A stretch of 64,000 bases of DNA, from the sequence record PZ338878.1. The stretch is one strand, 5' to 3'. Source of the stretch: a phage. Under the pieces are notes generated by a model. It made no database searches. It was not told the origin of the DNA and saw only the letters and a list, made by a program, of their open reading frames with translations. This document shows, piece by piece, positions 3,285 through 63,493 of this stretch. Position numbers and translations under genes: made by a program. Position 1 is the stretch's first letter. Each line of letters begins with the position of its first letter.

Positions 3285-3317
3285 ATATTAACACATATTA
3301 AATTAGTAAGTCAAGTA

Positions 3318-11717: not shown

Positions 11718-11809
11718 CTAAGATATGCAATCACCTTACCTCACAGTAAAACTCGTTACAATCGTTTTTAGGAGGTTCAGGTTGTACTTAAAAATAATCT
11801 AAAAAGGTG

Positions 11810-11838
11810 TTGACAAACGCAAAAAAGTATGCTACCCT
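11810..11838 (+). promoter_or_regulatory. sigma70-type promoter (TTGACA, 17-nt spacer, TGc-TACCCT)
   Basis: Perfect -35 and TG-extended -10 sharing the TATG-N-TA architecture of the other promoters here; transcript would begin at a CCCCC...GGGGG stem (11841-11871). Confidence 0.35.
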
Positions 11839-12019
11839 AACCCCCGAAAAACGCCGAGCGCAGCGAGGGGGTGTTATCTAATCTTGTGATACATGATCTA
11901 ACAGACAACTGAGTAGTCTACATATAGCACTATGTTATGTCTATAATACTAACATACATGCTCTATACTAACAATAGATTATTTATTAATTTTATTATTA
12001 ATTAAATAATAAATATCTA

Positions 12020-12048
12020 TTGACTTTAGATCTATCTGTATGTAGAGT
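12020..12048 (+). promoter_or_regulatory. sigma70-type promoter upstream of the prs-like gene
   Basis: TTGACT, 17 nt, TAGAGT preceded by TG; AT-rich upstream tract. Confidence 0.5.
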
Positions 12049-12087
12049 AGAGAACATAAAGTCCTAACTCAGCTAAGGAGATAAAAA

Positions 12088-12981
12088 ATGAAAGTTAGTA
12101 TTCTGCATGGTGTTGACTGTTATGTTACTGATGTAGACGTTAAAGTGTTTACATTCTCTGGTGGAGAACAACATGTTCAATTAGATATGAATCTATCAGA
12201 TTTCAATCATGCTACAGACAGAATCTTACTCACTTTAGAAGTAAGATCTGCTAAAGACTTGATGACTTTGGTTATGACTAAGAATGCATTGGACAATATG
12301 CTATATCATAAACCATATTGTGTTGATTTACTCATGTTGTATGTGCCGTATGCACGACAAGACAGAGTGTGTGAGCCTGGGGAAGCATTCGGAGTTAAAG
12401 CATTTGCTTCTATAATTAATTCATTAAATTTCTCACGTGTTATCGTTGCTGATCCGCATAGTGATGTTACTCCAGCAGTGTTTGACAGACTCTGTGTAAT
12501 ACCTCAAGAAGAGATTGCTTACGAAACTTTAAAGTGGAAGTTACGTATGGAGAATTTTGCTCTTGTTAGCCCTGATGGTGGTGCTCTTAAGAAAATATTT
12601 AAATTATCTAAGAAAATGTCTTTAGATGTGTTCTGTGCAGAGAAGGTTAGAGATACCGCAACAGGTGCTATTGTTCGTACAGACATTTCTGTACAGGATT
12701 TCAATAAGCGTAACCTGATGATCGTAGATGATATCTGTGATGGTGGTAGAACTTTTATCGAATTGGCTAAAGTGCTACGTGCTCGTAACGCAGGTAAGAT
12801 TGAGCTATATGTTACGCACGGTATCTTTTCTAAAGGTCTTAAAGAGTTAAGTGAGCACTTTGACTGCATTCATTCCCTTAATGTGTGGGAAGATAACATC
12901 CAAGAAGATTCTGGTGTTCTTGTTAAGAATCAGTCAGATTTGCAACAACAAATTGTATCTCCATACGTGTGGAATTTTTAA
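12088..12981 (+). CDS. prs: ribose-phosphate pyrophosphokinase (PRPP synthetase) family protein; candidate ADP-ribose pyrophosphokinase (Adps) of a NARP1-type pathway
   Basis: PRPP-binding loop MIVDDICDGGRTF; AAGGAG RBS; adjacent to nadV-like gene. Confidence 0.75.
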   Translation: MKVSILHGVDCYVTDVDVKVFTFSGGEQHVQLDMNLSDFNHATDRILLTLEVRSAKDLMTLVMTKNALDNMLYHKPYCVDLLMLYVPYARQDRVCEPGEAFGVKAFASIINSLNFSRVIVADPHSDVTPAVFDRLCVIPQEEIAYETLKWKLRMENFALVSPDGGALKKIFKLSKKMSLDVFCAEKVRDTATGAIVRTDISVQDFNKRNLMIVDDICDGGRTFIELAKVLRARNAGKIELYVTHGIFSKGLKELSEHFDCIHSLNVWEDNIQEDSGVLVKNQSDLQQQIVSPYVWNF

Positions 12982-12991
12982 ATAATAAGTG

Positions 12992-13020
12992 TTGACAATA
13001 GGGAGTATGCTTAGTAAGAT
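12992..13020 (+). promoter_or_regulatory. sigma70-type promoter upstream of the nadV-like gene, with overlapping inverted repeat
   Basis: TTGACA, 17 nt, TAAGAT; 8-bp inverted repeat GGGAGTAT / ATACTCCC (13001-13008 and 13019-13026) brackets the -10. Confidence 0.5.
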
Positions 13021-13052
13021 ACTCCCACATTAACAAACAAGGAGACATAACT

Positions 13053-14786
13053 ATGAATATTTTTGCACCTTTTGCTACTGATTGGTACAAACCTGGTCAC
13101 AAGCAGATGTACAACCAAAATACAAAACTTATTTTCTCTAATTTAACTCCTCGTAATGATAAAAACTTTGCACACTATGCAGATCGTGAAGCACGTGGTG
13201 TGATTGTTTTAGGTATTCGTCGAGCAGTCACTGATGCTCTTGTAACTATGTGGGATAGCTTCTTTAAAATGTCTCGTAGTGCAGCAGTAAATAAATTTTA
13301 TCGTATGTCTAAAAATGCATTAGGTGCTTCTGCTCCTTCTGCTGAATGTTGGGGAGAATTGCACGATTTAGGTTATCTTCCGCTGGAAGTTCGATCTCTG
13401 CCAGAAGGTGTTTTGTGTCCTATTGGTGTTCCTGTGTTTACTGTGCATAATACTTTAGAAAAATTCTTTTGGTTAACTAACTATGTGGAAACACTACTGT
13501 CAGATGAAACTTGGAAGACAATGACTAATGCCACAGCAGCTTTTCAGTATAAGCGTATCGCTATGGCATATGCGATGGCAACGTGTGATAATATTGATCA
13601 CGTTAACTTCCAGTGTCATGATTTTAGCCTACGTGGTTTAAGTAATATCGAAGATGGTTATAAGAGTGGTATCGCTCACTTGGCATCGTTCACAGGAACA
13701 GATAATATTCTGGCTATTGAAACTGTGCATGACTATTATGGTATTGATTATGATCAGTTTGTTGCAGGTTCGATTCCGGCAACAGAACATTCAGTAGCAA
13801 CGACTAACATTGGAGCTATTGTTGAAGATCTGAAGAAACATTTCCCACATCTTAAAGATGATGTAGATGGGCTTCGTTATGTAGCAGAAAAAGAGTTTCT
13901 TCGTCGTTATATCGAAGAAATTGTTCCAGAAGGTTTTTGTTCATATGTAGCAGACTCTTATGACTATTGGGCTGTATTGACTCGCATTCTGGTAGAATTG
14001 AAAGATTCCATTATGTCACGAAATGGTCGTCTTGTTATTCGTCCAGATTCAGGAGATCCGGTTAAAGTTGTTGCAGGATACAATGTTGAATCTTTTGATA
14101 ACTATGAAGACCTCTTAAATAATGGTATTGCGACAGCCACTGAAGTAGTTCATTTGGCTGATGTTAATAAGTATTACAATGTTCTTCAGGATTGCAGTGT
14201 TGCTGACTGTATTGATGAAACTTATGAGATTCCTTATTGTGAAGCAGTAGGTTCTATTCAAATCCTTTGGGAAGTGTTTGGTGGTACTATCAACCGAAAA
14301 GGCTACAAGGTTCTTGATCAGCATATCGGTATGATTTATGGTGATTCTATTACTGTTGAACGAGAACACGAGATCTTACGCCGACTGAAGAAGAAAGGTT
14401 TTGCAGCTTCCAATATTGTATTTGGTGTTGGTAGTTATACTTATCAGTTCAATACACGAGATACTTTTGGTTTTGCTGTTAAAGCAACAGGTAGTATTAT
14501 CGGTGAACACGAAATTTTGGTAAGTAAGGAGCCTAAAACTGATCCTGGTAAACGCTCTGCAAAAGGTTTTATTAAGGTTGTTAAGGATACCAATGGTAAT
14601 CTGTCTCTTGTAGATAATCTTTCTTTTAAAGATATCCAGGATGAAGACAATGAGTTACAAGTTATCTTCAAGGATGGTAAGGTTATTACACCACAAGTAG
14701 AAGGCCGTGATGAAACATTCACTGATATCCGCAACCGTGTTGACGTAGAGGTTCTTCGTACTATGGGAACCATCCAGGTTGACTAA
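13053..14786 (+). CDS. nadV: nicotinamide phosphoribosyltransferase family protein; candidate nicotinamide ADP-ribose transferase (Namat) of a NARP1-type pathway
   Basis: 577 aa; NAMPT-like N-terminus (FATDWYKPGHKQMY); GGAG RBS. Confidence 0.75.
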   Translation: MNIFAPFATDWYKPGHKQMYNQNTKLIFSNLTPRNDKNFAHYADREARGVIVLGIRRAVTDALVTMWDSFFKMSRSAAVNKFYRMSKNALGASAPSAECWGELHDLGYLPLEVRSLPEGVLCPIGVPVFTVHNTLEKFFWLTNYVETLLSDETWKTMTNATAAFQYKRIAMAYAMATCDNIDHVNFQCHDFSLRGLSNIEDGYKSGIAHLASFTGTDNILAIETVHDYYGIDYDQFVAGSIPATEHSVATTNIGAIVEDLKKHFPHLKDDVDGLRYVAEKEFLRRYIEEIVPEGFCSYVADSYDYWAVLTRILVELKDSIMSRNGRLVIRPDSGDPVKVVAGYNVESFDNYEDLLNNGIATATEVVHLADVNKYYNVLQDCSVADCIDETYEIPYCEAVGSIQILWEVFGGTINRKGYKVLDQHIGMIYGDSITVEREHEILRRLKKKGFAASNIVFGVGSYTYQFNTRDTFGFAVKATGSIIGEHEILVSKEPKTDPGKRSAKGFIKVVKDTNGNLSLVDNLSFKDIQDEDNELQVIFKDGKVITPQVEGRDETFTDIRNRVDVEVLRTMGTIQVD

Positions 14787-14857
14787 ATAAAAACTTCGTG
14801 ATAAGATTAAGGTAAGGAGAGCCTACAACTGCCCTGGATGGGCTTCACGAAGGATTT

Positions 14858-15079
14858 ATGAAACAACATAATTTTTATTTTCGTTGCCGAGCCTGTAACA
14901 GACACTTGACTAATCATTCCCGTAGAGACAGGAATGGTAATATTCAAGAGTCGGATCTATGCTCGATTTGTACAAGTTTGGCATTCGATGACAGTCCCGA
15001 AAGGGTTTATCAACATCAAAGTGTAACTGATCTTCTTCTAAATTACACAACACCAGAGGAGGAATTAGATTTCACATAA
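14858..15079 (+). CDS. hypothetical zinc-ribbon protein (73 aa)
   Basis: CRAC...CSIC cysteine pairs. Confidence 0.35.
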   Translation: MKQHNFYFRCRACNRHLTNHSRRDRNGNIQESDLCSICTSLAFDDSPERVYQHQSVTDLLLNYTTPEEELDFT

Positions 15080-15092
15080 TTAAGGAAACAGT

Positions 15093-15203
15093 ATGTCTAC
15101 AGAAATTATTTTTGGCTTATCTGTTTTTATTGCTATTGTATCTTTTGTATGCGGTTATACACTAGGTTACAGATCAAGAAAAAATATTGTAAAAACTAGT
15201 TGA
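15093..15203 (+). CDS. small single-pass membrane peptide (36 aa, below ORF-track cutoff)
   Basis: AAGGA RBS then ATG; MSTEIIFGLSVFIAIVSFVCGYTLGY hydrophobic core. Confidence 0.25.
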   Translation: MSTEIIFGLSVFIAIVSFVCGYTLGYRSRKNIVKTS

Positions 15204-15229
15204 CAACATAGCTAGTTATTTGCTAAGAT
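15200..15229 (+). promoter_or_regulatory. sigma70-type promoter (TTGACA, 18 nt, TAAGAT)
   Basis: Perfect -35 and 5/6 -10, upstream of ORF 15260 and the tRNA array. Confidence 0.45.
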
Positions 15230-15259
15230 AAGCACAAGTTAAACAAAAAGGAGAAAACT

Positions 15260-15526
15260 ATGACAGAACGTACTTATGGTAAAGAATTGATTGAGAAGCA
15301 CGTATTGATTGATAATAAAGGTGGAGCAATCTTTATTTTTGAACCTGAATCAGTTCTTACTGAAAACGAAAATGGTAGCGTTAGCCTTAAAACAGAAAGT
15401 TTGGTAATTGACTTCCTTGCTCTTCTGGATGAAATGGGGCTTCCGCACGAAGAAGAAGCAGCTATTGCTTTGATTACAGTTCTTCTGGAGAAACGCGAAG
15501 CTGGTGAAATGACCCAGTATGCTTAA
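15260..15526 (+). CDS. hypothetical protein (88 aa)
   Basis: ORF with AAAGGAG RBS. Confidence 0.45.
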   Translation: MTERTYGKELIEKHVLIDNKGGAIFIFEPESVLTENENGSVSLKTESLVIDFLALLDEMGLPHEEEAAIALITVLLEKREAGEMTQYA

Positions 15527-15533
15527 TATTCAA

Positions 15534-15609
15534 GGTTCCATAGCTCACTGACGAGAGCGCACACCTCATAAGTGTCGAGGGCAGGGATTGTAACCCTGGG
15601 GAACCACCA
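15534..15609 (+). tRNA. tRNA-Met (anticodon CAT; Ile2 or initiator not excluded)
   Basis: 76 nt; acceptor GGTTCCA/GGGAACC (one 7:66 mismatch); anticodon loop CTCATAA; non-canonical T-loop ATTGTAA; CCA encoded. Confidence 0.5.
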
Positions 15610-15640
15610 TTTAAAAGGAGATGCTATGCATCTCCTATAT

Positions 15641-15726
15641 GCAAGTGTGGTGGAATTGGTGATACACATTGTGCTTAAAACGCAACGCTTAAATGATTGA
15701 GGGTTCGAATCCCTCCACTTGCACCA
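15641..15726 (+). tRNA. tRNA-Leu (anticodon TAA)
   Basis: 86 nt class II; acceptor GCAAGTG/CACTTGC; anticodon loop CTTAAAA; long variable arm; T-arm GAGGG-TTCGAAT-CCCTC; A73; CCA encoded. Confidence 0.7.
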
Positions 15727-15728
15727 AC

Positions 15729-15834
15729 GCCTAGTAGGGTATTTGGTAATTCCGAGGCCATCAAAGCCTGAAAAATATGTTAGACCGCTTTGTCTAACTA
15801 AATACGAAATATGGTTCGATTCCATAACTAGGCT
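15729..15834 (+). ncRNA. tRNA-like element, 106 nt, non-canonical (possible stable small RNA, pseudo-tRNA or suppressor-like)
   Basis: Perfect 7-bp acceptor pairing GCCTAGT/ACTAGGC and canonical T-arm TATGG-TTCGATT-CCATA, but a 40-nt internal region with a 7-bp hairpin (15779-15798); candidate anticodon loop CATCAAA; no CCA encoded. Confidence 0.3.
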
Positions 15835-15866
15835 TCAATTTAAATAATAATTTTAGTAAAAATATC

Positions 15867-15895
15867 TTGACATTCACTTAGTTTTTTGTTATAGT
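15867..15895 (+). promoter_or_regulatory. sigma70-type promoter inside the tRNA array (TTGACA, 17 nt, TGt-TATAGT)
   Basis: Perfect -35 plus TG-extended -10, about 12 nt upstream of the next tRNA-like gene. Confidence 0.5.
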
Positions 15896-15906
15896 TACTG
15901 TGAAAA

Positions 15907-15988
15907 CGGGGTGTATCTCACCTGACTTCTAATCAGGCGTTAACCGAGTAATTGGAGTATGCAGGTTCGAATCCTGTCACCCCGACCA
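15907..15988 (+). tRNA. tRNA-Arg (anticodon TCT)-like, non-canonical D region
   Basis: 82 nt; acceptor CGGGGTG/CACCCCG; canonical anticodon arm CCTGA-CTTCTAA-TCAGG; T-arm GCAGG-TTCGAAT-CCTGT; CCA encoded; only 5 nt where the D-arm should be and a 23-nt region before the T-arm. Confidence 0.45.
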
Positions 15989-16006
15989 AAAAGTTTTAAA
16001 AACTAC

Positions 16007-16036
16007 TTGACAAGCAAGATAGTTTTATGTTAGATT
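16007..16036 (+). promoter_or_regulatory. sigma70-type promoter inside the tRNA array (TTGACA, 18 nt, TGt-TAGATT)
   Basis: Perfect -35 plus TG-extended -10, about 15 nt upstream of tRNA-Ser. Confidence 0.5.
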
Positions 16037-16051
16037 TAAAGTATGATAACG

Positions 16052-16141
16052 GGAAGGTAGGGCGCAGCGGTGCGCAACCAGGTTTGAACCCTGGCCCATT
16101 GTAGCGATACGGTGATGGTTCGACTCCATTATCTTCCTCCA
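16052..16141 (+). tRNA. tRNA-Ser (anticodon TGA)
   Basis: 90 nt class II; acceptor GGAAGGT/ATCTTCC; anticodon arm CCAGG-TTTGAAC-CCTGG; 19-nt variable arm; T-arm GATGG-TTCGACT-CCATT; CCA encoded. Confidence 0.7.
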
Positions 16142-16159
16142 AATTCAACTAGGAGCTTT

Positions 16160-16312
16160 ATGAATTATAAAACTATTGGACAGGTTGTTACCGGAGTTAA
16201 GATTGTAGATAATAAAGTTGTTTATGAGTATTCTAATCTTCAACAATCTGAAGATGGTAAAAATATTCGTATGGTAAAAGCAGAACAAAAAGATTCCGGT
16301 TGTTTTGAATAA
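16160..16312 (+). CDS. small hypothetical protein (50 aa) between tRNA genes
   Basis: AGGAG RBS then ATG at 16160; the ORF-track start at 16112 lies inside tRNA-Ser. Confidence 0.3.
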   Translation: MNYKTIGQVVTGVKIVDNKVVYEYSNLQQSEDGKNIRMVKAEQKDSGCFE

Positions 16313-16320
16313 TTAAGAAC

Positions 16321-16406
16321 GGTAGATTGGTGAAATGGTAGCCACAACAGTTTGCTAAACTGTCGTCGGAAACGGCGTGTAGGTTCAAGTCCTACATCTA
16401 CCGCCA
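16321..16406 (+). tRNA. tRNA-Ser (anticodon GCT)
   Basis: 86 nt class II; acceptor GGTAGAT/ATCTACC; anticodon arm ACAGT-TTGCTAA-ACTGT; long variable arm; T-arm GTAGG-TTCAAGT-CCTAC; G73; CCA encoded. Confidence 0.7.
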
Positions 16407-16540
16407 AGTTATCTTTAATGTAGCTTGTAATCTTACTTTAATAGAGTAAACTTTCGGCAGATGGCCTCCACCATCTTACCGATACCCTAATACTTCATAG
16501 TCAAGTGCCGCAAACACTGGCTATTTTAAAGATAATTTAT

Positions 16541-16616
16541 ACATCGTTAGCTTAGTTGGTAGAGCAAGGGGCTTTTAACTCCAAGGTCGAAGGTTCGAAT
16601 CCTTCACGATGTACCA
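16541..16616 (+). tRNA. tRNA-Lys (anticodon TTT)
   Basis: 76 nt; acceptor ACATCGT/ACGATGT (A1-U72); D-arm GCTT-AGTTGGTA-GAGC; anticodon loop CTTTTAA; T-arm GAAGG-TTCGAAT-CCTTC; CCA encoded. Confidence 0.65.
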
Positions 16617-16621
16617 AACAC

Positions 16622-16708
16622 GTAGGTATCGCATAGCGGCAATTGCTGGAGACTGTAAATCTCCTGCCCTTCGGGGCTTCGTTGGTTCGAGTCCAACTAC
16701 CTGCACCA
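16622..16708 (+). tRNA. tRNA-Tyr (anticodon GTA)
   Basis: 87 nt class II; acceptor GTAGGTA/TACCTGC; anticodon arm GGAGA-CTGTAAA-TCTCC; 16-nt variable arm with TTCG loop; T-arm GTTGG-TTCGAGT-CCAAC; CCA encoded. Confidence 0.7.
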
Positions 16709-16715
16709 AATTAAA

Positions 16716-16800
16716 GATGGATTGGCCTAGTGGTTGGGCGACGGACTGTTAATCCGTGAACGAAAGTTCTAGCAAGGTTCAAATCCTTGATCCATCGCCA
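16716..16800 (+). tRNA. tRNA with Asn anticodon (GTT) but a class II-type long variable arm
   Basis: 85 nt; acceptor GATGGAT/ATCCATC; D-arm GCCT-AGTGGTT-GGGC; anticodon arm ACGGA-CTGTTAA-TCCGT (as E. coli tRNA-Asn, from memory); 15-nt variable arm with GAAC/GTTC stem; T-arm CAAGG-TTCAAAT-CCTTG; G73; CCA encoded. Confidence 0.55.
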
Positions 16801-16879
16801 AATAGTGCTTGTAGAGTTAATAGAAACCTCTAGAATTTTCTAGAATTGTAGGTATAAAATCCTACCAAGCAAATATTTT

Positions 16880-16954
16880 GCTCCTATCGTATAACGGCTA
16901 TTACGGTTGCCTTGTAAGCAACTTATCAGGGTTCGAGTCCTTGTGGGAGCACCA
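16880..16954 (+). tRNA. tRNA-Thr (anticodon TGT)
   Basis: 75 nt; acceptor GCTCCTA/TGGGAGC; anticodon arm GTTGC-CTTGTAA-GCAAC; T-arm CAGGG-TTCGAGT-CCTTG; CCA encoded. Confidence 0.7.
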
Positions 16955-16971
16955 ATTTTAACTCTAAAGGA

Positions 16972-25389: not shown

Positions 25390-25782
25390 ATGGCAACTGG
25401 AATTTCTTTATCAAACTACCGCCAGGAATTTGGACACCTTGTTCTGGGTGGAGTATTTAGTTCTGACCTAGGTCACTGTGTTCGTGAAGTGAACCTGGTT
25501 AAAACTGCAACCATGAAAATTGGTTCTGTACTGAAAGCTGACAACACAGAAGCTGCTTCTGCTGGTGAAGCTGTTAAAGTTCTGCTGTGGACTGACGCAC
25601 TGTTCGGGATCGATGATGTTGCAGTAGGTGACACTTTCACCGCAGTTGTTGGTGTACGTGACCTGACTCTCAACCGTTATGCAGTTTACTACAAGAGTGG
25701 TGATCTGATTGATGACGCTGGCGTTGCAGCACTGGAAACTCACGATCTGAAACTGACTGAAAAAGTTGTTTTCACTTCTTAA
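25390..25782 (+). CDS. head protein (decoration-type?), highly expressed
   Basis: 130 aa ORF with strong codon bias (CTG, CGT, GGT) like the adjacent capsid gene; AAGGAG RBS. Confidence 0.35.
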   Translation: MATGISLSNYRQEFGHLVLGGVFSSDLGHCVREVNLVKTATMKIGSVLKADNTEAASAGEAVKVLLWTDALFGIDDVAVGDTFTAVVGVRDLTLNRYAVYYKSGDLIDDAGVAALETHDLKLTEKVVFTS

Positions 25783-25803
25783 TTTTTAATAGGAGATTTA
25801 TAC

Positions 25804-26805
25804 ATGCCAGCTATTATCTTAGATCAGGTTGTTGACTTTAGCCCAATGATTGAGCTACAAGAAACTCCTGATACACTTATCGCAAGTCTGAACCTGTTTG
25901 ATGTTCAGTATCATGCTACCACTGCTATCGAAATTGGCAGACAGAAAAATGCAGATGGTCTGATCCCAGCACGTGAACGTGGTGGTGAGCGTAACTTCCT
26001 GACTATGGACGCTCCAAGCGTTAAAGTCTTCCGTATTCCGTTCTTCCCTCTGGATAAGAACATTAAGGCACAGGATATTCAATCCTTCCGTAGCTTCGCT
26101 ATGGGTGGCATCAATGATAACCTGCGTACCGAAGCGGAAGTTGTTAACCGCTATATGACTCAAATCCTGCGTGATGTTGCAAAAACTAAAGAAAAAATCT
26201 TTGCAGAAGCAGTAATGGGTCGTGCATACAATGGTGTTGGTGGTGCAGCTAACTCTGCATACAACTGGTACACCGAATGGGGTGCTACCCAGAAATCAGT
26301 ATCTGTAGATTTCGCTTCTACTACTGTTTCTCCGGCTGCTACCATTGAGAAAGAAGCTCGTGCATACATCATCGATCAGAAACAAGACGGTTCTACCGCT
26401 ACTCGTATCGTTGCTCTGTGCTCTCGTGAGTTCTTTGCTTCTCTGGTTAACTCTCCGTTTGTTCGCCAGGCTTATCAATACTTCCAAGGTACTCCGAACC
26501 TTCTGCGTGACCGCCTAAGCGGTAATATGGACGTTCAAGTATTCGAATGGAATGGTGTAACCTACATCGAAGATATCCACGGTAACATTCCTGCTGGTGA
26601 AGCGTTTGTTCTGCCGATGGGTATTCCAGATATGTTCCAGGCGCACTATGCTCCAGCGGATACTCCAGAACTGGCTAACACTGTTGCTCGTGATCTGTAT
26701 ACCTTTATGGTATCTGAACACCGCACTGTACAGCTACAGTCTGAATTCTCCCTGCTGGCGGTTAATACCCGTCCAGAACTGGTAGTTAAACTGACTACTG
26801 CTTAA
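25804..26805 (+). CDS. major capsid protein (putative)
   Basis: 333 aa, strongly biased codon usage, position after scaffold, followed by a strong terminator. Confidence 0.5.
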   Translation: MPAIILDQVVDFSPMIELQETPDTLIASLNLFDVQYHATTAIEIGRQKNADGLIPARERGGERNFLTMDAPSVKVFRIPFFPLDKNIKAQDIQSFRSFAMGGINDNLRTEAEVVNRYMTQILRDVAKTKEKIFAEAVMGRAYNGVGGAANSAYNWYTEWGATQKSVSVDFASTTVSPAATIEKEARAYIIDQKQDGSTATRIVALCSREFFASLVNSPFVRQAYQYFQGTPNLLRDRLSGNMDVQVFEWNGVTYIEDIHGNIPAGEAFVLPMGIPDMFQAHYAPADTPELANTVARDLYTFMVSEHRTVQLQSEFSLLAVNTRPELVVKLTTA

Positions 26806-26826
26806 TCCTTAACGGGATTCTAAAAA

Positions 26827-26853
26827 GCCTGCCCCTTGCGGGTGGGCTTTTTT
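26827..26853 (+). terminator. rho-independent terminator after the capsid gene
   Basis: GCCTGCCC-CTTGC-GGGTGGGC stem then TTTTTT. Confidence 0.6.
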
Positions 26854-26872
26854 ATTATGTGTCCCACTAACA

Positions 26873-27241
26873 ATGAGAGGAAACACGATTATGGGTAACG
26901 CTGTACTGAAAACATATTTTAGCTACCATGAAATGATTATGGATTTTGCTTCACTATCTCCTGCATTAGATGCAGGTAAGACACTTAGTGTTGCTCCACC
27001 TATGTCATTCTATACTACAGATGGTAGAGTAGCCCTTGGCGGTAACTTTATTCACTTCTTAGTTCGTCTACGTGAAGAGACAGGAATTCAGGTTCATCCC
27101 TTCGGAAGTGAAGAACATCCTGGTTACTATCTCGTTAGCTATGAAGATTATGCACCTGTAGAATTAAAAACGCAAGATAAAATTGAAGTTAAAGCAGTAG
27201 ACACACCAGCAAAGAAACGTGCACAGCGCACTAAAAAGTAA
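26873..27241 (+). CDS. hypothetical head/neck-module protein
   Basis: ORF; start ambiguous (ATG 26873 or 26891). Confidence 0.4.
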   Translation: MRGNTIMGNAVLKTYFSYHEMIMDFASLSPALDAGKTLSVAPPMSFYTTDGRVALGGNFIHFLVRLREETGIQVHPFGSEEHPGYYLVSYEDYAPVELKTQDKIEVKAVDTPAKKRAQRTKK

Positions 27242-27253
27242 TAGGAGGTTTAC

Positions 27254-27802
27254 ATGCTTGTAGCTAGTGACCTTGTACCTATGATCCGTATATTGGTGTT
27301 TAATCCTTCACAAGAAACACTTCCTGATGCAATGATTGAACAGATCATTCAAACGTGGATAGATGTGCTAGGGAATGATGATGCCAATAAATGTGCCGTA
27401 CTGTGGAACAGTCTGATCTCTGTACTTGAATACTTGTGGAATACAGACGTACTAAATCATAATACACAGACAGGTGGTGCTCTTTCTAGAAAAGAGAAAG
27501 TTGGCGAAGTACAGGTTGAAGTAACCTTTGGTACTGGACAGACAGAATACATCTCACCTTGGGAAAATATCTATAAAGGATATCTTGATGGTGATATGAT
27601 GATACCTGGTTGTACTTCTGGTAGAGGTGTAACGAGTAAAGTATTAGTTGGTGGTGTTGATGCTCGTGAAATTGATCGTGTCAACAGTGATCCTAATTCA
27701 GTAAATGGTTTAGGTGGTGTTGGCAGTGTAGATCGACATACGAGAAATATCAAGTATGCCAGAAACTATGGCCCCATTGGTTACTACAGAAGGGATAAAT
27801 AA
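27254..27802 (+). CDS. head-tail joining protein (putative, by synteny)
   Basis: ORF with AGGAGG RBS between capsid and sheath genes. Confidence 0.35.
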   Translation: MLVASDLVPMIRILVFNPSQETLPDAMIEQIIQTWIDVLGNDDANKCAVLWNSLISVLEYLWNTDVLNHNTQTGGALSRKEKVGEVQVEVTFGTGQTEYISPWENIYKGYLDGDMMIPGCTSGRGVTSKVLVGGVDAREIDRVNSDPNSVNGLGGVGSVDRHTRNIKYARNYGPIGYYRRDK

Positions 27803-28290
27803 TGAAATGTGAGATCAAACGTGGCGATGATATGTCGTTAGATGAATATTTTAGTAAAATGCTGGCTCTGGATAATATAGAAATAGATGCTGGTTTTCTT
27901 ACTGCTGTTCGCCATCCAGAATCAGATCTCACTATCCCTGCAATTGCTGCCATACAACAGTTTGGTAATGAAACAAACAATACTCCTGCACGTCCGTTTT
28001 TAACGGATGGTGCAGTCCACGCCAGCAAAGAAATACCTAAACATTTTGATGAAGTGTTTAGAAATTATTTACTTCGTGGAAGGGGTTTAGCTGCCTTTGA
28101 ACCTATTGCAAAAGTTTCACGAGAATCTATTGCTAAAGCGATTGCTCTGCAACGTTATAGACCACTATCTCCTGTGACTATTAAAATCCGTAGAGATAAA
28201 GGTAACTACTCTTCTCATATTCTTATTGATACTGGACACTTAATTAACAGTATTGAATCAGAAATCAAGAAGGGTCGTTCTAAAAAATAA
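27802..28290 (+). CDS. head-tail joining protein (putative, by synteny)
   Basis: ORF; start overlaps upstream stop (ATGA). Confidence 0.35.
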   Translation: MKCEIKRGDDMSLDEYFSKMLALDNIEIDAGFLTAVRHPESDLTIPAIAAIQQFGNETNNTPARPFLTDGAVHASKEIPKHFDEVFRNYLLRGRGLAAFEPIAKVSRESIAKAIALQRYRPLSPVTIKIRRDKGNYSSHILIDTGHLINSIESEIKKGRSKK

Positions 28291-28291
28291 C

Positions 28292-28320
28292 TTGCAATAA
28301 GTCTGTTTTTGATGTATACT
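28292..28320 (+). promoter_or_regulatory. sigma70-type promoter (TTGCAA, 17 nt, TG-TATACT)
   Basis: 5/6 -35, TG-preceded -10, upstream of the AAAGGAGA RBS of gene 28335. Confidence 0.4.
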
Positions 28321-28334
28321 AAAAAGGAGATACA

Positions 28335-28751
28335 ATGCTATTAGACCAATTTACTCTCCTTGATCTTACAACGTATCAGGGTCGTAAAAGAACCTATGTT
28401 CAAGATCCTGATTCGCCAATTTCCAATATGGGTAATACAGTAGCATACGAAGACTTTACAATAGAGGCTGCAAGTTTGCAACCAATATCAGGTAGAACAC
28501 TTCAAGCACTGCCAGAGGGATACAGATCTAAGGCACAATATAGCTTCTGGACAAAAACAGAAATCAGAGGCATTCAGCAAGGATCAGATCAATTATCTGA
28601 CCAAATACTAATAGATGGACAATGGTTTTCCATTTATTCTTTGAAAGATTGGACAAGAACATCTTTCTTAATACACACACATTGTGTTGCTATTCTAGAT
28701 GACCAGAATAACACCTATTCTTATTCTGAGGAGGGTGGTAATTTTGGCTAA
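28335..28751 (+). CDS. neck/tail-completion protein (putative, by synteny)
   Basis: ORF with AAAGGAG RBS. Confidence 0.35.
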   Translation: MLLDQFTLLDLTTYQGRKRTYVQDPDSPISNMGNTVAYEDFTIEAASLQPISGRTLQALPEGYRSKAQYSFWTKTEIRGIQQGSDQLSDQILIDGQWFSIYSLKDWTRTSFLIHTHCVAILDDQNNTYSYSEEGGNFG

Positions 28752-29400
28752 TATCTACGAACAAATTGAATTGTATGAAAATACGATATTATTAAATATC
28801 GCTAAGTTCTTACAAAGACTCGTGGGGCTTCCGGTTTATGTTATGGATAAGCCATTTGTTAAACCAACAACCCCATATCTGACATTACGTATTGTATCAT
28901 CTGATGATTCAGGTGGTTGGTCACAAAAATATTCTTTTAGTGAAGATGCGTTTTCATATCTAATGGACAATAAGTATGAAATAGAACTTATGGCTTTTAG
29001 AGGAAGACCAATGACACTTTTAAGTTATGTTCTTGCGGCACTTCGTGGTGCAGATGAATTAAAATACCAGTATCTTTATTCCAAAGGTATTAGCTTCTTG
29101 TCTGCAACAAATGTTGCACAGGCTAACACTGTTCTGGATGGAGATAAAACTGAACAAAGAGCGAGAATATTTCTTACATTCAATACTACGATGGTTATTG
29201 AGGATTTAGTAACTACCGAAATTGAAGCAATTAATATGAACATTCATTCGTTCAGAGATGATTACGATGATCCTACTCCAATAGATCTTCCTTTGGATAA
29301 GATTTACATTGTTGCTCACAGAAGTAAAACTTATTACTTTACGACGACTGATGATGGATCATTAATTAAGTATATCCCAACGGATAATTCATTGGAATAA
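28744..29400 (+). CDS. neck/tail-completion protein (putative, by synteny)
   Basis: ORF; probable TTG start at 28744 after GAGGAGGG RBS (ORF-track ATG at 28699 lies deep in the upstream gene). Confidence 0.35.
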   Translation: MANIYEQIELYENTILLNIAKFLQRLVGLPVYVMDKPFVKPTTPYLTLRIVSSDDSGGWSQKYSFSEDAFSYLMDNKYEIELMAFRGRPMTLLSYVLAALRGADELKYQYLYSKGISFLSATNVAQANTVLDGDKTEQRARIFLTFNTTMVIEDLVTTEIEAINMNIHSFRDDYDDPTPIDLPLDKIYIVAHRSKTYYFTTTDDGSLIKYIPTDNSLE

Positions 29401-29420
29401 AGTTTCTAACAGGAGCATAA

Positions 29421-30827
29421 ATGGCAACTTTTCGTGATAAGGTAGTTTCCGTAACCCTTACCTACGGTGCTACTTCAATTAGTGAAACACAGTTTGATAT
29501 CCCTCTAATTCTTACAGGGCATAACGTTACTGGCAATCTTGTAGATTATTTCACTTCTTCAGACGCACTTCTGCAAGCAGGTTTTGGCACTGCCGATCCA
29601 GCTTATAAAATGGCAAAACTACTATTTGACGGTCTGTTCGCACCAGAACAAGTTATCGTCGGTAAGCGTGATGTTTCTAAAACAACTCTAACTCCAGTAG
29701 TTGAAGATAGTGCAACTTACGTTATCACTATTAAAGCAAATTCAAAAAGCAAGGACTTCAAGTTTGTTGCCGATGATACTGCAACTGCTCAAGAGATTGT
29801 TGTTGGTTTAACAGAAATGATCAACGCAGACATGGTGTATAAAGAATTCTTCACTGTGTCAAACGATGGTAGTGTTATCACTGTAACCCCAGTTGCAGGT
29901 AAATACGCTACTATGGATAGTTCAGGATTCACAACTAAAGTAGAATATGCAAATGATATCTTAGAAGATATTGCTAAAATTGCAGATTATGAAAACAGTT
30001 GGTTCTGGTTACTATCTGATTCTCACGCAGAACAAGATATTATCGATCTAGCAGGTTATGTAGAAGAGCACGATAAAGTGTATTTCTTCTCTACCTCGCA
30101 ACCAGGTGTTCTAACTAAACAAGAAGATAACATTCTAGAACGCTTAGGTGATATGGGCTACAATAACACTTGTATGGCATTGTGGATGACTAACGCTGAT
30201 ACAGTGTTCCCAGAAGCTGCTGTAGTTGGTTCTATCTGCTCTGCAACACCAGGTACTACTACCCTGCATGGTAAAACCCTTGTTGGTATCGAGATTGAAA
30301 AACTTGGTCAGACAGCAGAAAACTTTATCGTTCAACAGAATGGTAATATTTACCGTAAAGAACACGGTGTTCTGTTCTACCGTGATGGTTTCATGGTTAG
30401 TGGTTTCTATGTTGACTATGTGGTACACGCTCTGTGGTTCAAAGCTCGCGTAGAAGAATCTCTGTTCGCTCTATTTAAACAGCAATCTATGCTTGGTAGT
30501 GGTGTTAGAGCAACTTCTGCTGGTCTTGCTTTGATTCGTCAGGCTGTTACTGCAAACCCAATCCAAGTAGGTATTAACAATGGTTCTATTGCCAATGAGG
30601 TAGTAACTTCAGAGGAAACAGGACTTCTGGTAAGCCTTAAACCTACTATCTATATCCCATCTCGTGCAGATATGACTGATGCTCAAATCAATGCACGTTT
30701 GGTTGATGGTATGGTTATTGAATACGTATATGCTGGATTCTTCCACTATGTTAAAGTGCAGGTAAACGTTCTGACGAACCGCACTGCAAATAGCCAGAAT
30801 TCCAATAGCTCTACTGTATCTTCATAA
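29421..30827 (+). CDS. tail sheath protein (putative)
   Basis: 468 aa, biased codon usage, AGGAG RBS, directly upstream of tube-sized gene. Confidence 0.45.
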   Translation: MATFRDKVVSVTLTYGATSISETQFDIPLILTGHNVTGNLVDYFTSSDALLQAGFGTADPAYKMAKLLFDGLFAPEQVIVGKRDVSKTTLTPVVEDSATYVITIKANSKSKDFKFVADDTATAQEIVVGLTEMINADMVYKEFFTVSNDGSVITVTPVAGKYATMDSSGFTTKVEYANDILEDIAKIADYENSWFWLLSDSHAEQDIIDLAGYVEEHDKVYFFSTSQPGVLTKQEDNILERLGDMGYNNTCMALWMTNADTVFPEAAVVGSICSATPGTTTLHGKTLVGIEIEKLGQTAENFIVQQNGNIYRKEHGVLFYRDGFMVSGFYVDYVVHALWFKARVEESLFALFKQQSMLGSGVRATSAGLALIRQAVTANPIQVGINNGSIANEVVTSEETGLLVSLKPTIYIPSRADMTDAQINARLVDGMVIEYVYAGFFHYVKVQVNVLTNRTANSQNSNSSTVSS

Positions 30828-30835
30828 TTAAAAGC

Positions 30836-30853
30836 AGCGGGGGAAACCCCGCT
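30836..30853 (+). terminator. GC-rich hairpin (partial terminator/attenuator) between sheath and tube genes
   Basis: AGCGGGG-GAAA-CCCCGCT with no U-tract. Confidence 0.3.
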
Positions 30854-30885
30854 TATATGAAAAGTAGTATAAAAGGAGATCCACT

Positions 30886-31365
30886 TTGGATAAAATGCTT
30901 ACTGGCGTAATGGCCTATGATCCTTCTCAAGTAATCCTGTCTTTGGGTGGTTGGGAACCTTGGGGTTTCGCCGCAGATACCAAAATTGTTATTAACAAAA
31001 CTAACGATATCATCAACCCATATTCAGGTACTGATGGTGACGTTTCCTTGGCGCTTAGTCGTAACCGTTTAGGTACGCTAACAATGTCACTGCAACGTAC
31101 TTCTCCAGCAAACGAAGTTCTTGCTGCTTATGCACAAACGATGTATTCTACTCGTCAAGTAGCATTTAGCGTATATCTGGAAGACCCTCGCGGATATTAT
31201 ATCAGCACAATTGGTTGGATTCAAAGCCAACCGGACGATACTATTGGTGAAACTATTCAAGAAAACCAATGGGTAATTGGTCTTAAAGATGCAAGCCTAC
31301 TTCGTTCTACTGTAGGTGTTGGTGTTAACGCACTTAACTCTATTAGTGCTCTAACTATTCAGTAA
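30886..31365 (+). CDS. tail tube protein (putative)
   Basis: 159 aa ORF after sheath gene; AAAGGAG RBS; TTG start. Confidence 0.45.
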   Translation: MDKMLTGVMAYDPSQVILSLGGWEPWGFAADTKIVINKTNDIINPYSGTDGDVSLALSRNRLGTLTMSLQRTSPANEVLAAYAQTMYSTRQVAFSVYLEDPRGYYISTIGWIQSQPDDTIGETIQENQWVIGLKDASLLRSTVGVGVNALNSISALTIQ

Positions 31366-31368
31366 TAA

Positions 31369-31394
31369 AAAGGGCAGAAATGCCCTTTATTTTT
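31369..31394 (+). terminator. rho-independent terminator after the tube gene
   Basis: AAAGGGCA-GAAA-TGCCCTTT then ATTTTT. Confidence 0.55.
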
Positions 31395-31408
31395 AAAGAG
31401 AGGAAATA

Positions 31409-31891
31409 ATGGAACAACAAAAAGATAATACTATTGCAAAATTTGCTCGTCCAGAAGTAATGGTTGAAATTGATCTGGATGAAGGACGCAGTGTAAAATT
31501 TAGAGTTCTCAAGTGGAGTCCGACTAAAGTTTTTGAAAGGATTCCAGAACTAGGTAGTGTACTGGCTGTTCCTATGACAATGTATAATACTGCTCTTATG
31601 TCAGCAGACGAAGATCTAGAAGCTCGTATTGCTATGGCACTGATCCAATTATTCAGTGGTCTGGAAGAAAAAAACTTAGCCGCATTCTTACGTAAAATTT
31701 TAGATGAAGTTTACACAGAAGCAGGACACAGTGTTTCCGATAATTTTGATGAATTGTTTTTTGCTCACCCAGAATTAGTTGTTGACTTAGCTGCAAAAGT
31801 TCTTGAGGTGAACTATGCCCCTTTTTTCAAACGAGGTTTCGGAAAACTGTTGACCCAATTTCAAGGAATAGAGACTCTAGCGAAGAGTTAA
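31409..31891 (+). CDS. tail assembly chaperone (G-like)
   Basis: 160 aa ORF between tube and tape-measure genes; slippery site near its 3' end. Confidence 0.5.
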   Translation: MEQQKDNTIAKFARPEVMVEIDLDEGRSVKFRVLKWSPTKVFERIPELGSVLAVPMTMYNTALMSADEDLEARIAMALIQLFSGLEEKNLAAFLRKILDEVYTEAGHSVSDNFDELFFAHPELVVDLAAKVLEVNYAPFFKRGFGKLLTQFQGIETLAKS

Positions 31892-32166
31892 GTCCGGCAA
31901 TTAAATCAGCAATTGAAATTGCCTCACAAACCCTTAGCTTGACATGGTATGAAGTAATTCTTTGTAAGGTAATTAAGAATACCTCCGAAACCTTGTCCTC
32001 GTTAGATAATTATGGTGTAGATTATCTACTTAAAATTTATGAATATTTAACATTTGAAGACTATGTACAAGATCTTCACGTTAAAGATGCGGATATTAAA
32101 CGTGGTCAACAGAGAACAATAAGAGAACTGGATACGGCTATGAAAAAATTAATTCCAGATTCATAA
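31409..32166 (+). CDS. tail assembly chaperone, -1 frameshift fusion product (G-T-like)
   Basis: Shift at 31822-31828 joins ORF 31409 to the 31939-32166 ORF frame; canonical position immediately upstream of the tape-measure gene. Confidence 0.4.
31822..31828 (+). other. -1 programmed ribosomal frameshift slippery heptamer T TTT TTC
   Basis: X XXY YYZ heptamer in the chaperone 0 frame; the -1 frame is open from 31807 to 32166. Confidence 0.45.
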
Positions 32167-32185
32167 GTAATACGGAGGATTACCC

Positions 32186-34165
32186 TTGTTAGAAATTAAC
32201 ACTTCCAAGATTAAGAATACAGTAACGTTTACTGTAGATAAAGACAGTTTAAAAAATACTAAAGACGCAATTAAAAACCTTAAAACTTTTACAGAATCTA
32301 TTGAACCATCTTTAAATATGACTAAAATGCGTCGTCAGTTTAAAAGTATGGAAGAGTATGCTAAAAGAATAAGGCAGCAAATGTCAGGTCTTGGCGGCGG
32401 TAATCCTCCACCAATCCCACCAGCCGGAGGTTCAAGTGGTGGTGGAAAAGGAGGAAGTGGTAGAGGTGGTTCTGGATCTTCTGGAGGACGTAAGACACCA
32501 GAGGAAAGAGCCGCAGAAGCCGCCGCTAAACGTGCAGCACTTGCTAATATGAAGCAAGACGATTTTAGTTTTAAAGCTATGCCTTTTACAAAAGCAGACA
32601 GCAGAATTCTAGAAAAATCTAAAAAGATTGTAGAAGAAACTGTTGAACTTTATCGTAAAGGTGTAATCACTAGCCAACAAATGAATAATACTTTGGCTAG
32701 ACAGTTAGAAGAACTACGAAGATCTCATAGAGAGAAGAATGCACAACTTCTTGATGAAGAGAGAGCTAGACGTAGAATTGCCCGTCTGCAAGAAGCAGAA
32801 GATAAAAGAAGACAGCGTATCCGAGAAAGAGAAAGAAAGGATTTCGAACGTCAGCAAAGAAGAGAGAAAGAAGCAAGACAACGAGATAGACAACGTAAGC
32901 TATCTGGTGTAGGTAATGCTGCTATTGCTCTTAACCCTGCTATGTTTGGTGCTGCTCTTTTAGGTGCTGGTTTATATCAAGGTATAAGCAAAATAGCTGA
33001 AAATATTACAGCGGCGGCAGAACGTATTAATATGGTTAGTAAAGGTGGTCAGAACGTACAGGTAAACCCTAACGCAATTTTAACAATGCGTACTTGGGGT
33101 GAAATGAACGGTGTAGACTCTGCCAGCATTATTAAAGCCATTGACAATATTAAAGACGTTCGTGAACGTTTAGGTAATACTGTACTCCACTCTGAATTTG
33201 ATGAAAAATCAGGTAAATGGAAAGGTGGAGATAGTGGTATTAATGAAATCATGAACCAATTTGGTTGGTCGAAAGAAGATGTTGCTAAATTCCAGAACAG
33301 ACCTCTAGACTTTGTTCAAGCACTTGTTAATGAAGGTCAAAAAAGAGGAATGAACTCCGCGCAAATTGGTCGTTTGATGGAAAACCTTGGTGATGACTTA
33401 ATGCACTACCAACGTATGTTTTTGGATAACGGTAAAGAGTACATGAAAGTCTTGGATATGTTAAAAAATTCAGGAGCAACTCTTAACGATGAAAACATCA
33501 AAGCAGCACAAGATTTTGTTAAACTAAGAGCACAAATTAGTGCAGCAGGAGAAGGTTTTACCAATAACTTACTTGTAGGGTTTATGGATGGTTTAAAATC
33601 TGCACCAGATTTTGCAGAAAATATGAAAACTTTCCAAGAAGCTGCTCGTGGTCTTGGTGAAATGTCTGGTAGTATTGTAAGTAGCCTTGCAAAAATTGCG
33701 AAATATTTCCTTGATTTTTCAAATAAGGTTGGGCCAAAAAACAATACTAAAGAAGCTGTAAGAGATTATTATAATGGTACGCAGTATGGGTACGATGCAC
33801 AGGTTGGTGGTAATCCTTGGGCTTATTGGCCTATTGGAAGAGATCAACATAAACCTGAAAATCAACCTTTAGGTGACTTTGATAGTAGTTTCTTAACTAG
33901 CGCCTTAAACCCAAGTGCTTCTAGTATTGGTTACAATAGACCTGATTTAACAGCATCTATGCTAACACCACGCCAAGGTGTTCCAGTACCGTTAAGTCTA
34001 GAGAATACGGTTGTTATCCCAGACAACGCATTCCAGATTAATGTTATTCCAGATGGTTATGGTTTTAGTAATTATCTAGATGCGACAATGAATACCAGTT
34101 TTAGTAACTTCTCACAAGGTTTAACTCTTCAGTTAAGCAGTGGACAATCTTCTACTGGTGGTTAA
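32186..34165 (+). CDS. tail tape measure protein
   Basis: 659 aa; Gly-rich tracts (GGGNPPPIPPAGGSSGGGKGGSG); Arg/Glu-rich coiled coil; TTG start after GGAGGA RBS. Confidence 0.6.
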   Translation: MLEINTSKIKNTVTFTVDKDSLKNTKDAIKNLKTFTESIEPSLNMTKMRRQFKSMEEYAKRIRQQMSGLGGGNPPPIPPAGGSSGGGKGGSGRGGSGSSGGRKTPEERAAEAAAKRAALANMKQDDFSFKAMPFTKADSRILEKSKKIVEETVELYRKGVITSQQMNNTLARQLEELRRSHREKNAQLLDEERARRRIARLQEAEDKRRQRIRERERKDFERQQRREKEARQRDRQRKLSGVGNAAIALNPAMFGAALLGAGLYQGISKIAENITAAAERINMVSKGGQNVQVNPNAILTMRTWGEMNGVDSASIIKAIDNIKDVRERLGNTVLHSEFDEKSGKWKGGDSGINEIMNQFGWSKEDVAKFQNRPLDFVQALVNEGQKRGMNSAQIGRLMENLGDDLMHYQRMFLDNGKEYMKVLDMLKNSGATLNDENIKAAQDFVKLRAQISAAGEGFTNNLLVGFMDGLKSAPDFAENMKTFQEAARGLGEMSGSIVSSLAKIAKYFLDFSNKVGPKNNTKEAVRDYYNGTQYGYDAQVGGNPWAYWPIGRDQHKPENQPLGDFDSSFLTSALNPSASSIGYNRPDLTASMLTPRQGVPVPLSLENTVVIPDNAFQINVIPDGYGFSNYLDATMNTSFSNFSQGLTLQLSSGQSSTGG

Positions 34166-34172
34166 TGCATAA

Positions 34173-34196
34173 AGCCTCGCTTCGGCGGGGCTTTTT
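34173..34196 (+). terminator. rho-independent terminator after the tape-measure gene
   Basis: 8-bp stem AAGCCTCGC/GCGGGGCT with TTCG tetraloop then TTTTT. Confidence 0.6.
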
Positions 34197-34203
34197 ATTT
34201 GTC

Positions 34204-34233
34204 TTGACAAAGAGTTGTTTTTCGTGATAAAAT
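34204..34233 (+). promoter_or_regulatory. sigma70-type promoter (TTGACA, 18 nt, TGa-TAAAAT)
   Basis: Perfect -35 plus extended -10; upstream of the baseplate gene block. Confidence 0.5.
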
Positions 34234-34280
34234 GAGTGATAAGGGAGAATGTTTCTTATCACATTAAGAGGTAAAATTAT

Positions 34281-34991: not shown

Positions 34992-35002
34992 GGAGAAAAT
35001 TT

Positions 35003-60079: not shown

Positions 60080-60109
60080 ATAATAACACATAATTGTAAG
60101 GTTTGTCAA
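60080..60109 (-). promoter_or_regulatory. sigma70-type promoter on the minus strand (TTGACA, 18 nt, TGt-TATTAT)
   Basis: Perfect -35 and extended -10 read on the minus strand; only about 10 nt from the ATG at 60069, so the transcript would be near-leaderless. Confidence 0.3.
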
Positions 60110-63464: not shown

Positions 63465-63493
63465 ACTGTACCATAAATTAATTGTTTTGTAAA
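63465..63493 (-). promoter_or_regulatory. sigma70-type promoter for the DNA polymerase gene (TTTACA, 17 nt, TACAGT)
   Basis: Minus-strand reading; about 35-nt leader containing the RBS. Confidence 0.4.

Follow-up and report, generated by a model that had tools for sequence, protein, structure and literature searches.

Within the 64,000 nucleotides of phage DNA from sequence record PZ338878.1 that were analyzed here (referred to below as the window), the plus strand between positions 11,810 and 34,233 carries a series of promoter-like sites in which a TTGACA-type box is followed, after 17–18 bp, by a -10 box that is often preceded by TG. A first-pass annotation of this DNA had described these sites as a near-identical family of host-type promoters with a conserved TATG-N-TA core, and it had suggested that the extra conserved bases may constitute a phage-specific recognition or regulation element. 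The question raised by this locus is therefore whether these bases indicate something particular to the phage or whether they are part of what the host polymerase itself recognizes. Based upon the sequence characteristics described below, the flagged sites are very probably promoters for the unmodified Escherichia coli RNA polymerase sigma-70 holoenzyme, of the composite type, common among strong promoters of lytic phages, in which a -35 box, an extended -10 element, and a -10 box are combined with an UP element, here a putative one. When the part of the window from 11.8 to 20 kb was compared by megablast, 487 phage records were matched, the best of them being Escherichia phage pEC-M2929-1AR.1 (OP177727.1) with 99.1% identity. 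By the taxonomy of this best match, the window is assigned to a phi92-like coliphage, a myovirus of the Stephanstirmvirinae, Justusliebigvirus.

The sites were collected by listing every TTGACA in its context and by relaxed scans, and a -10 box of the form TAnnnT was used as a criterion for their selection. Twelve promoter-like sites were identified on the plus strand in this manner (Table 1). They include all five of the sequence strings that had been quoted in the first-pass annotation (viz. those of P16007, P17316, P22015, P18566, and P11810), and the interval under study extends exactly from the start of the -35 box of P11810 to the end of the -10 box of P34204. The -35 box is TTGACA in nine of the 12 sites and TTGACT in the other three, a TAnnnT box is present in all of them, and the spacer is 17 bp long in six and 18 bp long in six. 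A correctly placed TGn (T-15 G-14, one base before the -10 box) is found in nine sites and also in a minus-strand site of the same class at 60109; the sites without a canonical TGn are P12992, where TG is absent, and P12020 and P23709, where it abuts the -10 box. The earlier estimate of at least ten TG-extended sites was thus slightly overstated, TGn and a perfect TTGACA each being limited to nine of the 12. Likewise, a spacer ending in TATG had been ascribed to most of the sites, but the TATGnTA arrangement is present in five. All 12 sites are intergenic and on the coding strand, each of them preceding a gene of the same orientation at a distance that gives a leader of plausible length. With +1 set at 7 nt past the -10 box, the predicted leaders measure 5–9 nt to the 5' ends of tRNAs and 14–58 nt to start codons, the exception being the 243-nt leader of P11810, inside which P12020 is located.

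Table 1. Promoter-like sites of the window and a tRNA gene associated with one of them
Feature	Position	Strand	-35 box, spacer (bp), -10 box	Bases before -10 box	String	Location and remarks
P11810	11810..11838	+	TTGACA-17-TACCCT	TATGc	ATGCTACCC	Upstream one of two tandem sites within the divergent intergenic region; 243 nt to PRPP synthetase (12088)
P12020	12020..12048	+	TTGACT-17-TAGAGT	TG abuts -10 box (not canonical TGn)		Very AT-rich upstream tract; 33-nt leader to PRPP synthetase
P12992	12992..13020	+	TTGACA-17-TAAGAT	no TGn		26 nt before NAMPT (13053)
P14779	14779..14807	+	TTGACT-17-TAAGAT	cgTGa		Before small open reading frame (ORF) at 14858; overlaps the last NAMPT codons
P15200	15200..15229	+	TTGACA-18-TAAGAT	ttTGc		Before ORF 15260, tRNA-Met, and tRNA-Leu; orthologue in Klebsiella phage phi1_175008 (L009, 1267)
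P15867	15867..15895	+	TTGACA-17-TATAGT	ttTGt		About 5 nt before tRNA 15907-15985
tRNA gene	15907-15985	+				Rfam tRNA model, 40 bits (gathering score 29); not called by ARAGORN
P16007	16007..16036	+	TTGACA-18-TAGATT	TATGt	ATGTTAGAT	9 nt before tRNA-Ser (16052)
P17316	17316..17345	+	TTGACA-18-TAGAGT	TATGt	ATGTTAGAG	5 nt before tRNA-Gly (17357)
P18566	18566..18594	+	TTGACT-17-TATCCT	TATGt	ATGTTATCC	Just past terminator 18524-18542 closing the tRNA array; before small-ORF, spanin, and terminase genes
P22015	22015..22044	+	TTGACA-18-TAAAGT	TATGt	ATGTTAAAG	Between terminase large subunit and portal
P23709	23709..23737	+	TTGACA-17-TAGACT	TG abuts -10 box		Before head-maturation-protease-like gene and head operon
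P34204	34204..34233	+	TTGACA-18-TAAAAT	cgTGa		Immediately 3' of the terminator that follows the tape-measure gene; before tail/baseplate block of about 23 kb
60109 (same class)	60080..60109	-	TTGACA-18-TATTAT	TGTGt		Intergenic
3314 (same class, candidate)	3285..3314	-	TTGACT-18-TAATAT	TGTGt		Intergenic
63493 (same class, candidate)	63465..63493	-	TTTACA-17-TACAGT	TATGg		Intergenic, right after a GC-rich hairpin
11974 (candidate leftward partner)	11946..11974	-	TTGTTA-17-TAGTAT	TATGt		Divergent region; weaker -35 box (4/6)

In the window as a whole, the pattern TTGACA-N13-16-TGnTA has 11 matches against 1.41 expected, and none of 100 shuffled sequences reached this number; when TATG is required in the same pattern, four matches are observed against 0.09 expected. 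Seven of the 11 are plus-strand sites of the interval 11,810–34,233, all seven of them intergenic and, apart from P11810 with its 243-nt leader, placed 5–58 nt before a tRNA or Shine-Dalgarno sequence; another is the intergenic minus-strand promoter at 60109. The other three (5667, 10771, and 56773, all on the minus strand) lie within genes or antisense to them and were rejected, their number being about that expected by chance (~1.4). A comparison of k-mers between the intergenic and the total DNA of the plus-strand gene block also ranks TTGACA first, with 10 of its 20 copies lying in the 6.4% of the DNA that is intergenic (p = 1e-7), followed by TTGACAA, TCTTGACA, and then the Shine-Dalgarno sequence AAGGAG; the bases 'tc' preceding TTGACA were likewise picked up by the intergenic k-mer analysis. 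The heptamer TATGTTA taken alone shows no clear enrichment in the window, where it occurs 28 times against 19.2 expected, a number reached by 4 of 100 shuffles.

The conservation of individual bases was determined from 13 sites (the 12 plus-strand sites and that at 60109) aligned on the -10 box. T-12, A-11, and T-7 are present in all 13, although this invariance is partly built in by the site-selection rule and provides a consistency check rather than independent evidence. Farther upstream, T-15 is present in 11, G-14 in 10, and T-17 in nine of the 13 sites (eight of the 10 TGn sites); position -16 is mixed (A in five, T in four, G in three, and C in one), and the full TRTG is found in six of the 10 TGn sites. 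The sequence from -20 to -18 is rich in T and A, there is no further informative column, and T-17 may simply be part of a T/A-rich tract from -20 to -17. On inspection, A-tracts (such as 'taaaaacta', 'ctaaaaagg', and 'tcaaaag') are seen directly 5' of most of the -35 boxes, P14779 and P34204 being without one. The conserved set comprises a putative proximal UP A-tract, tcTTGACA, T-17, T-15 G-14, and T-12 A-11 T-7. In these terms, the TATG-N-TA core is T-17 A-16 T-15 G-14 N-13 T-12 A-11, i.e., a TRTGn extended -10 element followed by the first two bases of the -10 box, which are invariant.

Outside these elements, the sites have little in common. Pairs of sites have an average identity of 0.93 within the -35 box and 0.64 within the -10 box. 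This falls to 0.38 for the upstream sequence, 0.35 for the spacer, and 0.29 for the downstream sequence, as compared with 0.30 expected from composition, and the sites are not near-identical, as they had been described. These values also bear on the possibility that the sites arose by duplication of a single promoter cassette, as a dispersed repeat whose members are alike by common descent. It could be cited in favor of such an origin that P15200 and P16007 share 'aaaaacta(g/c)TTGACAa' as well as 'tagtt' in the spacer, and that the tRNA arrays of related phages differ in gene content. However, an identity of 0.29–0.38 outside the contact elements is hardly different from that due to composition, the spacers are unrelated to each other, and orthologous spacers diverge freely. 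Duplication of a cassette is thus a very improbable source of the observed likeness, and the near-composition identity outside the contact elements effectively refutes it.

The promoter consensus of Hawley and McClure, 'tcTTGACat...t-tg-TAtAaT', already contains T-17, T-15, and G-14, and also the 'tc' before TTGACA. It is further known that sigma region 3 reads TGn at positions -15 to -13, that this element is extended to -17 TRTG -14 in Gram-positive promoters, and that the level of transcription in E. coli is influenced by the bases at -17 and -16 (PMC2613000). Spacers of at least 18 bp are commoner in TGn promoters, and there is a '-35/TGn' class whose weak -10 boxes are compensated by TGn (PMC2613000). 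An analysis across bacteria has found TG and TRTG to be enriched, together with an AT tract beside the -10 box (bioRxiv 10.1101/2025.01.23.634641). As the conserved positions in the present sites all match known contact or modulating positions of the sigma-70 holoenzyme, they are best understood as ordinary host-polymerase promoters. In such promoters, the alpha subunits' C-terminal domains would bind the A-tract between about -46 and -40, sigma region 4.2 would bind (tc)TTGACA, and sigma region 3.0 would read T-15 G-14; T-17 and a purine at -16 (the TRTG form) would adjust strength, and sigma region 2 would read T-12 and capture A-11 and T-7. The TGn element would offset the -10 boxes that match TATAAT at only three to five of six positions (TAGAGT, TAGATT, TAAAGT, TATCCT, TACCCT), and it would offset the slightly long 18-bp spacer as well.

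Two known promoter classes are similar to these sites. The E. coli -35/TGn class (gapA P1, Pminor, and also tyrT, with TGn and an essential -35 box) likewise has TG at -15/-14; its -35 box is good, its -10 box is imperfect with TGn making up for the deficit, and its spacers tend to be of 18 bp (PMC2613000). In contrast to this host class, a perfect -35 box (9 of 12) is found here along with an UP-like A-tract, and the combination of all four elements is rarer in host genes. The TRTGn '-16 region' of Gram-positive sigma-A promoters is comparable in that T-17 (9 of 13 sites here and 12 of 14 in relatives) and a base at -16 that is mostly a purine give TATG or TGTG before nTAnnnT. However, the host in this case is E. 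coli, where the -17 and -16 bases affect strength but are not known to be contacted directly, and in several of the sites -16 is T, the full TRTG being present in about half.

To examine conservation of the sites in other genera, relatives from an annotated phage collection were compared, viz. phAPEC8 (Phapecoctavirus; L008) and Klebsiella phage phi1_175008 (L009), both of which are ~76–78% identical to the window over the terminase–portal segment that was used for finding them. The same kind of sites are present at corresponding places in both of these phages, 11 of 14 with an 18-bp spacer and 12 of 14 with T-17. In alignments of the orthologous sites, TTGACA, TG, and TA...T persist, whereas the spacers and flanks diverge. 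For example, the spacer of P16007 is agcaagatagttt in the window and actaacattattt in phAPEC8, but it is followed by TATGTTAGATT in both and TTGACA is kept. The TA of TATG is less stable than the rest. At P34204, the three phages have CGTGA, TGTGT, and CATGC, and only the -35 box, TG, and TA..AT are kept; the P17316 orthologues retain the -35 box, T-17, and TAnAGT but have lost G-14; and for P22015, the phi1_175008 orthologue reads TATGG TAAAGT, whereas its phAPEC8 counterpart shows a different, 17-bp arrangement. The -35 hexamer is strictly conserved in the orthologues, and its retention across genera argues for use of the host sigma region 4. When viral contigs were scanned with NAMPT as query, near-identical relatives were the only matches apart from a single 40%-identical locus without comparable promoters. 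The host-type designation that the first-pass annotation had given to these sites is thus well supported by the statistics, the position and orientation of the sites, the leader lengths, and the conservation in other genera, and we infer the start sites, the sigma-70 dependence, and the timing of use of these promoters.

The early region of the closest relative, OP177727.1 (L003), lies outside the window, at 124–145 kb of that record. Its TTGACA promoters, ~20 in number, differ in design and are more stereotyped, with a spacer of 16–17 bp, TGn in about a quarter of them, G frequent at -13, an A-tract, and a TAAAGT-like -10 box, after which there is a conserved transcribed 'gTATCACATAGG' and then a GC-rich hairpin, GCGGGAAATGGTTTCCCGC. 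This conserved initial transcribed sequence with a 5' stem-loop is present on at least 12 early transcripts (L003 ~29700–37000, minus strand; record ~137.7–145 kb), and it is seen also at position 1104 of L002. The TGn/T-17/18-bp/TTGACAA design is found, in addition to the plus-strand sites, at the minus-strand intergenic promoters 3314, 60109, and 63493 and possibly at 11974. The contrast between the two classes indicates that two sigma-70 architectures partition the genome between early and non-early genes, and it is a modest new point that TGn with an 18-bp spacer marks the non-early ones. This split could reflect different demands on promoter strength and mRNA stability.

The clear difference between the early promoters (16–17 bp, little TGn, conserved transcribed sequence, and hairpin) and those of the window (17–18 bp, TGn, T-17) is also what can be adduced for the view that the TATGnTA core, or the TRTGn and 18-bp design, is a discriminator for a phage factor, such as an anti-sigma-region-4 protein that would silence early promoters dependent on the -35 box while TGn promoters stay active, and that it marks a middle or late class. 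Essentially the same motif, TggTAaAAtA, precedes late genes in phage rV5, whose authors noted an Srd-like protein, and promoters of the TGn/-10 type are resistant to AsiA of T4 (PMC2613000). However, the conserved positions are already contact or modulating positions of sigma-70, -16 is not conserved, and TATGTTA alone is not enriched. Further, a perfect -35 box is kept in three genera, which is unexpected if region 4 were disabled, the same design precedes tRNA, NAD, and structural genes alike with no obvious temporal split within the window, and no candidate factor was identified here. In view of these observations, a role of the core as a mark for a phage factor appears quite unlikely, and the phage-specific element proposed in the first-pass annotation finds no support. 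It seems similarly unlikely, although we state it for consideration, that phi92-like phages employ the two sets of host-type promoters as a timing device in which a phage polymerase-binding protein favors the TTGACAA/18-bp/TRTGn set later in infection, with the extended -10 element discriminating between them. The contrast between early and non-early classes could underlie temporal control, and a class-specific timing role for this promoter design is conceivable.

A related promoter set has been described for rV5 (Vequintavirinae) by Kropinski et al. (2013), who reported 33 sigma-70-like promoters, of which 11 have an extended -10 element, and a MEME motif, TggTAaAAtA, before late genes, which they likened to the T4 late consensus (PMC3606486). 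According to Table S4 of that work, the 'late' motif is (T)(G/T)TGGTAAAAT, i.e., an extended -10 box, often with T-17 (PMC3606486). This related large myovirus thus likewise has sigma-70-like TTGACA promoters and an extended -10 motif, but most copies of its 'late' motif are without a -35 box, whereas every site described here has one. The comparison made by the rV5 authors is also the point in favor of regarding the sites as T4-type late promoters (TATAAATA) or MotA-type middle promoters, recognized with a replaced or remodelled sigma. The MotA box has the consensus (a/t)(a/t)TGCTT(t/c)A, centred at -30, and it replaces the -35 element. However, TATAAATA occurs six times in the window against 7.0 expected and never at these sites, all of which have TTGACA or TTGACT at -35 to -30 and not a TGCTT MotA box at ~-30, and no homologues of gp33, gp45, or gp55 are reported for rV5 (PMC3606486). 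The T4-type interpretation is in our view extremely improbable and, with TATAAATA at chance level and a -35 box in all sites, T4-type late and MotA-type middle promoters are ruled out at the sequence level. Early promoters of phage T5 are very strong host-polymerase promoters. The same holds for those of T4, many of which likewise carry UP, -35, TGn, and -10 elements together (PMC2613000); in the present phage group, in contrast, the early set is the different, more stereotyped one, and the TGn-rich class drives non-early genes.

A number of considerations weigh against the identification of these sites as promoters of the unmodified host holoenzyme. A literature search revealed no transcript 5'-end data for the phi92-like group (Vequintavirinae/Stephanstirmvirinae), and two of the -10 boxes (TACCCT and TATCCT) are poor. 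The presence of consensus host promoters before portal, head, and tail genes leaves late timing unexplained, and strength alone offers no obvious explanation for a class-specific design (TGn, T-17, 18-bp spacer, and A after TTGACA) that differs from that of the early-region promoters. Conceptually, nothing new is required by the sites, as their conserved bases fit known sigma-70 contacts. They are new annotations of a thoroughly known type of element, an equivalent motif having been published for rV5 in 2013. At P16007, the one site for which this was checked, no annotation was present in the public records of phi92-like and phAPEC8-like phages, including phi92, among the listed ones of 121 matches. 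The main value of the sites lies in annotation, as it is by these promoters that the NAD-salvage, tRNA, packaging, head, and tail modules are divided into transcription units. The sites also likely act as strong promoters in E. coli, which is relevant to cloning toxicity and to the use of promoter parts.

The arrangement of genes on the two strands of the window was derived from GC skew and the layout of ORFs. Genes to the left of ~11.7 kb, including those for ribonucleotide reductase, thymidylate synthase, ligase, and exonuclease, are on the minus strand. A plus-strand gene block extends from 11.8 to 57.5 kb, and after ~58 kb the genes are again on the minus strand. The plus-strand block begins with PRPP synthetase, NAMPT, and 16 tRNAs called by ARAGORN, to which the Rfam tRNA model adds one more. 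Next come spanins, the terminase large subunit, portal, and a head-protease-like gene, and further on the major head and decoration proteins, sheath, tube, tape measure, and tail/baseplate genes. The promoter sites cut this block into units consisting of PRPP synthetase, NAMPT, two small ORFs, four tRNA groups, lysis and terminase, portal, the head operon, and the tail and baseplate operon. The placement of the sites before the NAD module, inside the tRNA array, and before late operons, as originally described, is confirmed, with sites preceding PRPP synthetase and NAMPT, portal, the head protease, and the tail genes that follow the tape measure. After P34204, ~23 kb of tail, baseplate, and fibre genes (34240–57491, plus strand) are without a further sigma-70-like promoter. 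Terminator-like hairpins are located between genes of this block at ~45.76, 52.64, and 54.64 kb, and read-through or partial termination is implied.

The gene at 23762–24253, which follows P23709, likely has its true start at the ATG at 23774, which is preceded by a Shine-Dalgarno-like GAGGAA and is kept in the relatives, whereas 23762 is not. Its product matches phrog_1530 ('DNA methyltransferase'), the match being limited to the C-terminal portion of that profile, and it also matches families of head maturation proteases. The label 'DNA methyltransferase', which this gene bears in several public records, is probably wrong.

The tRNA at 15907–15985 explains P15867, as it would be the product that this site drives. 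The region of its anticodon loop reads, by eye, cttctaa, which suggests Arg(TCT), and a tRNA-Arg is located at the corresponding place in phAPEC8. Rfam, at E <= 0.1, did not report the tRNA-Met genes that ARAGORN called at 15534 and 18019. Between tRNA-Leu and P15867, the segment 15727–15835 (plus strand) is tRNA-like, with complementary ends (gcctagt...actaggc) and a T-arm-like 'atggttcgattccat'; it was called by neither ARAGORN nor Rfam and may be a decayed tRNA gene. The Rfam scan of 11–35 kb revealed, besides tRNAs, only noise below threshold and no known regulatory RNA under these promoters.

The divergent control region at 11718–12087 (370 bp) contains P11810 and P12020 in tandem rightward and the leftward candidate at 11974. 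An extremely AT-rich tract is present at 11980–12018, and at the start of the P11810 leader there is a possible C5/G5 hairpin (11841–11870). At P23709, a block with the sequence 'caaatatcctgtagactaagatttatgggatatttgttttta' (23713–23764, core 23719–23761) spans the spacer, the -10 box, and the first transcribed bases. This block is almost invariant in the three genera (L008 ~16736–16790; L009 ~15301–15355), although the sequences flanking it have diverged. It contains a 17-nt inverted repeat and as RNA is predicted to form a hairpin of 18 bp (-22.3 kcal/mol, z = -4.6) with a U-run after it; the relatives show two substitutions, which are not compensatory. An operator is one possible function of the block; another is that of a hairpin for termination or processing of read-through transcripts, in which a promoter is embedded.

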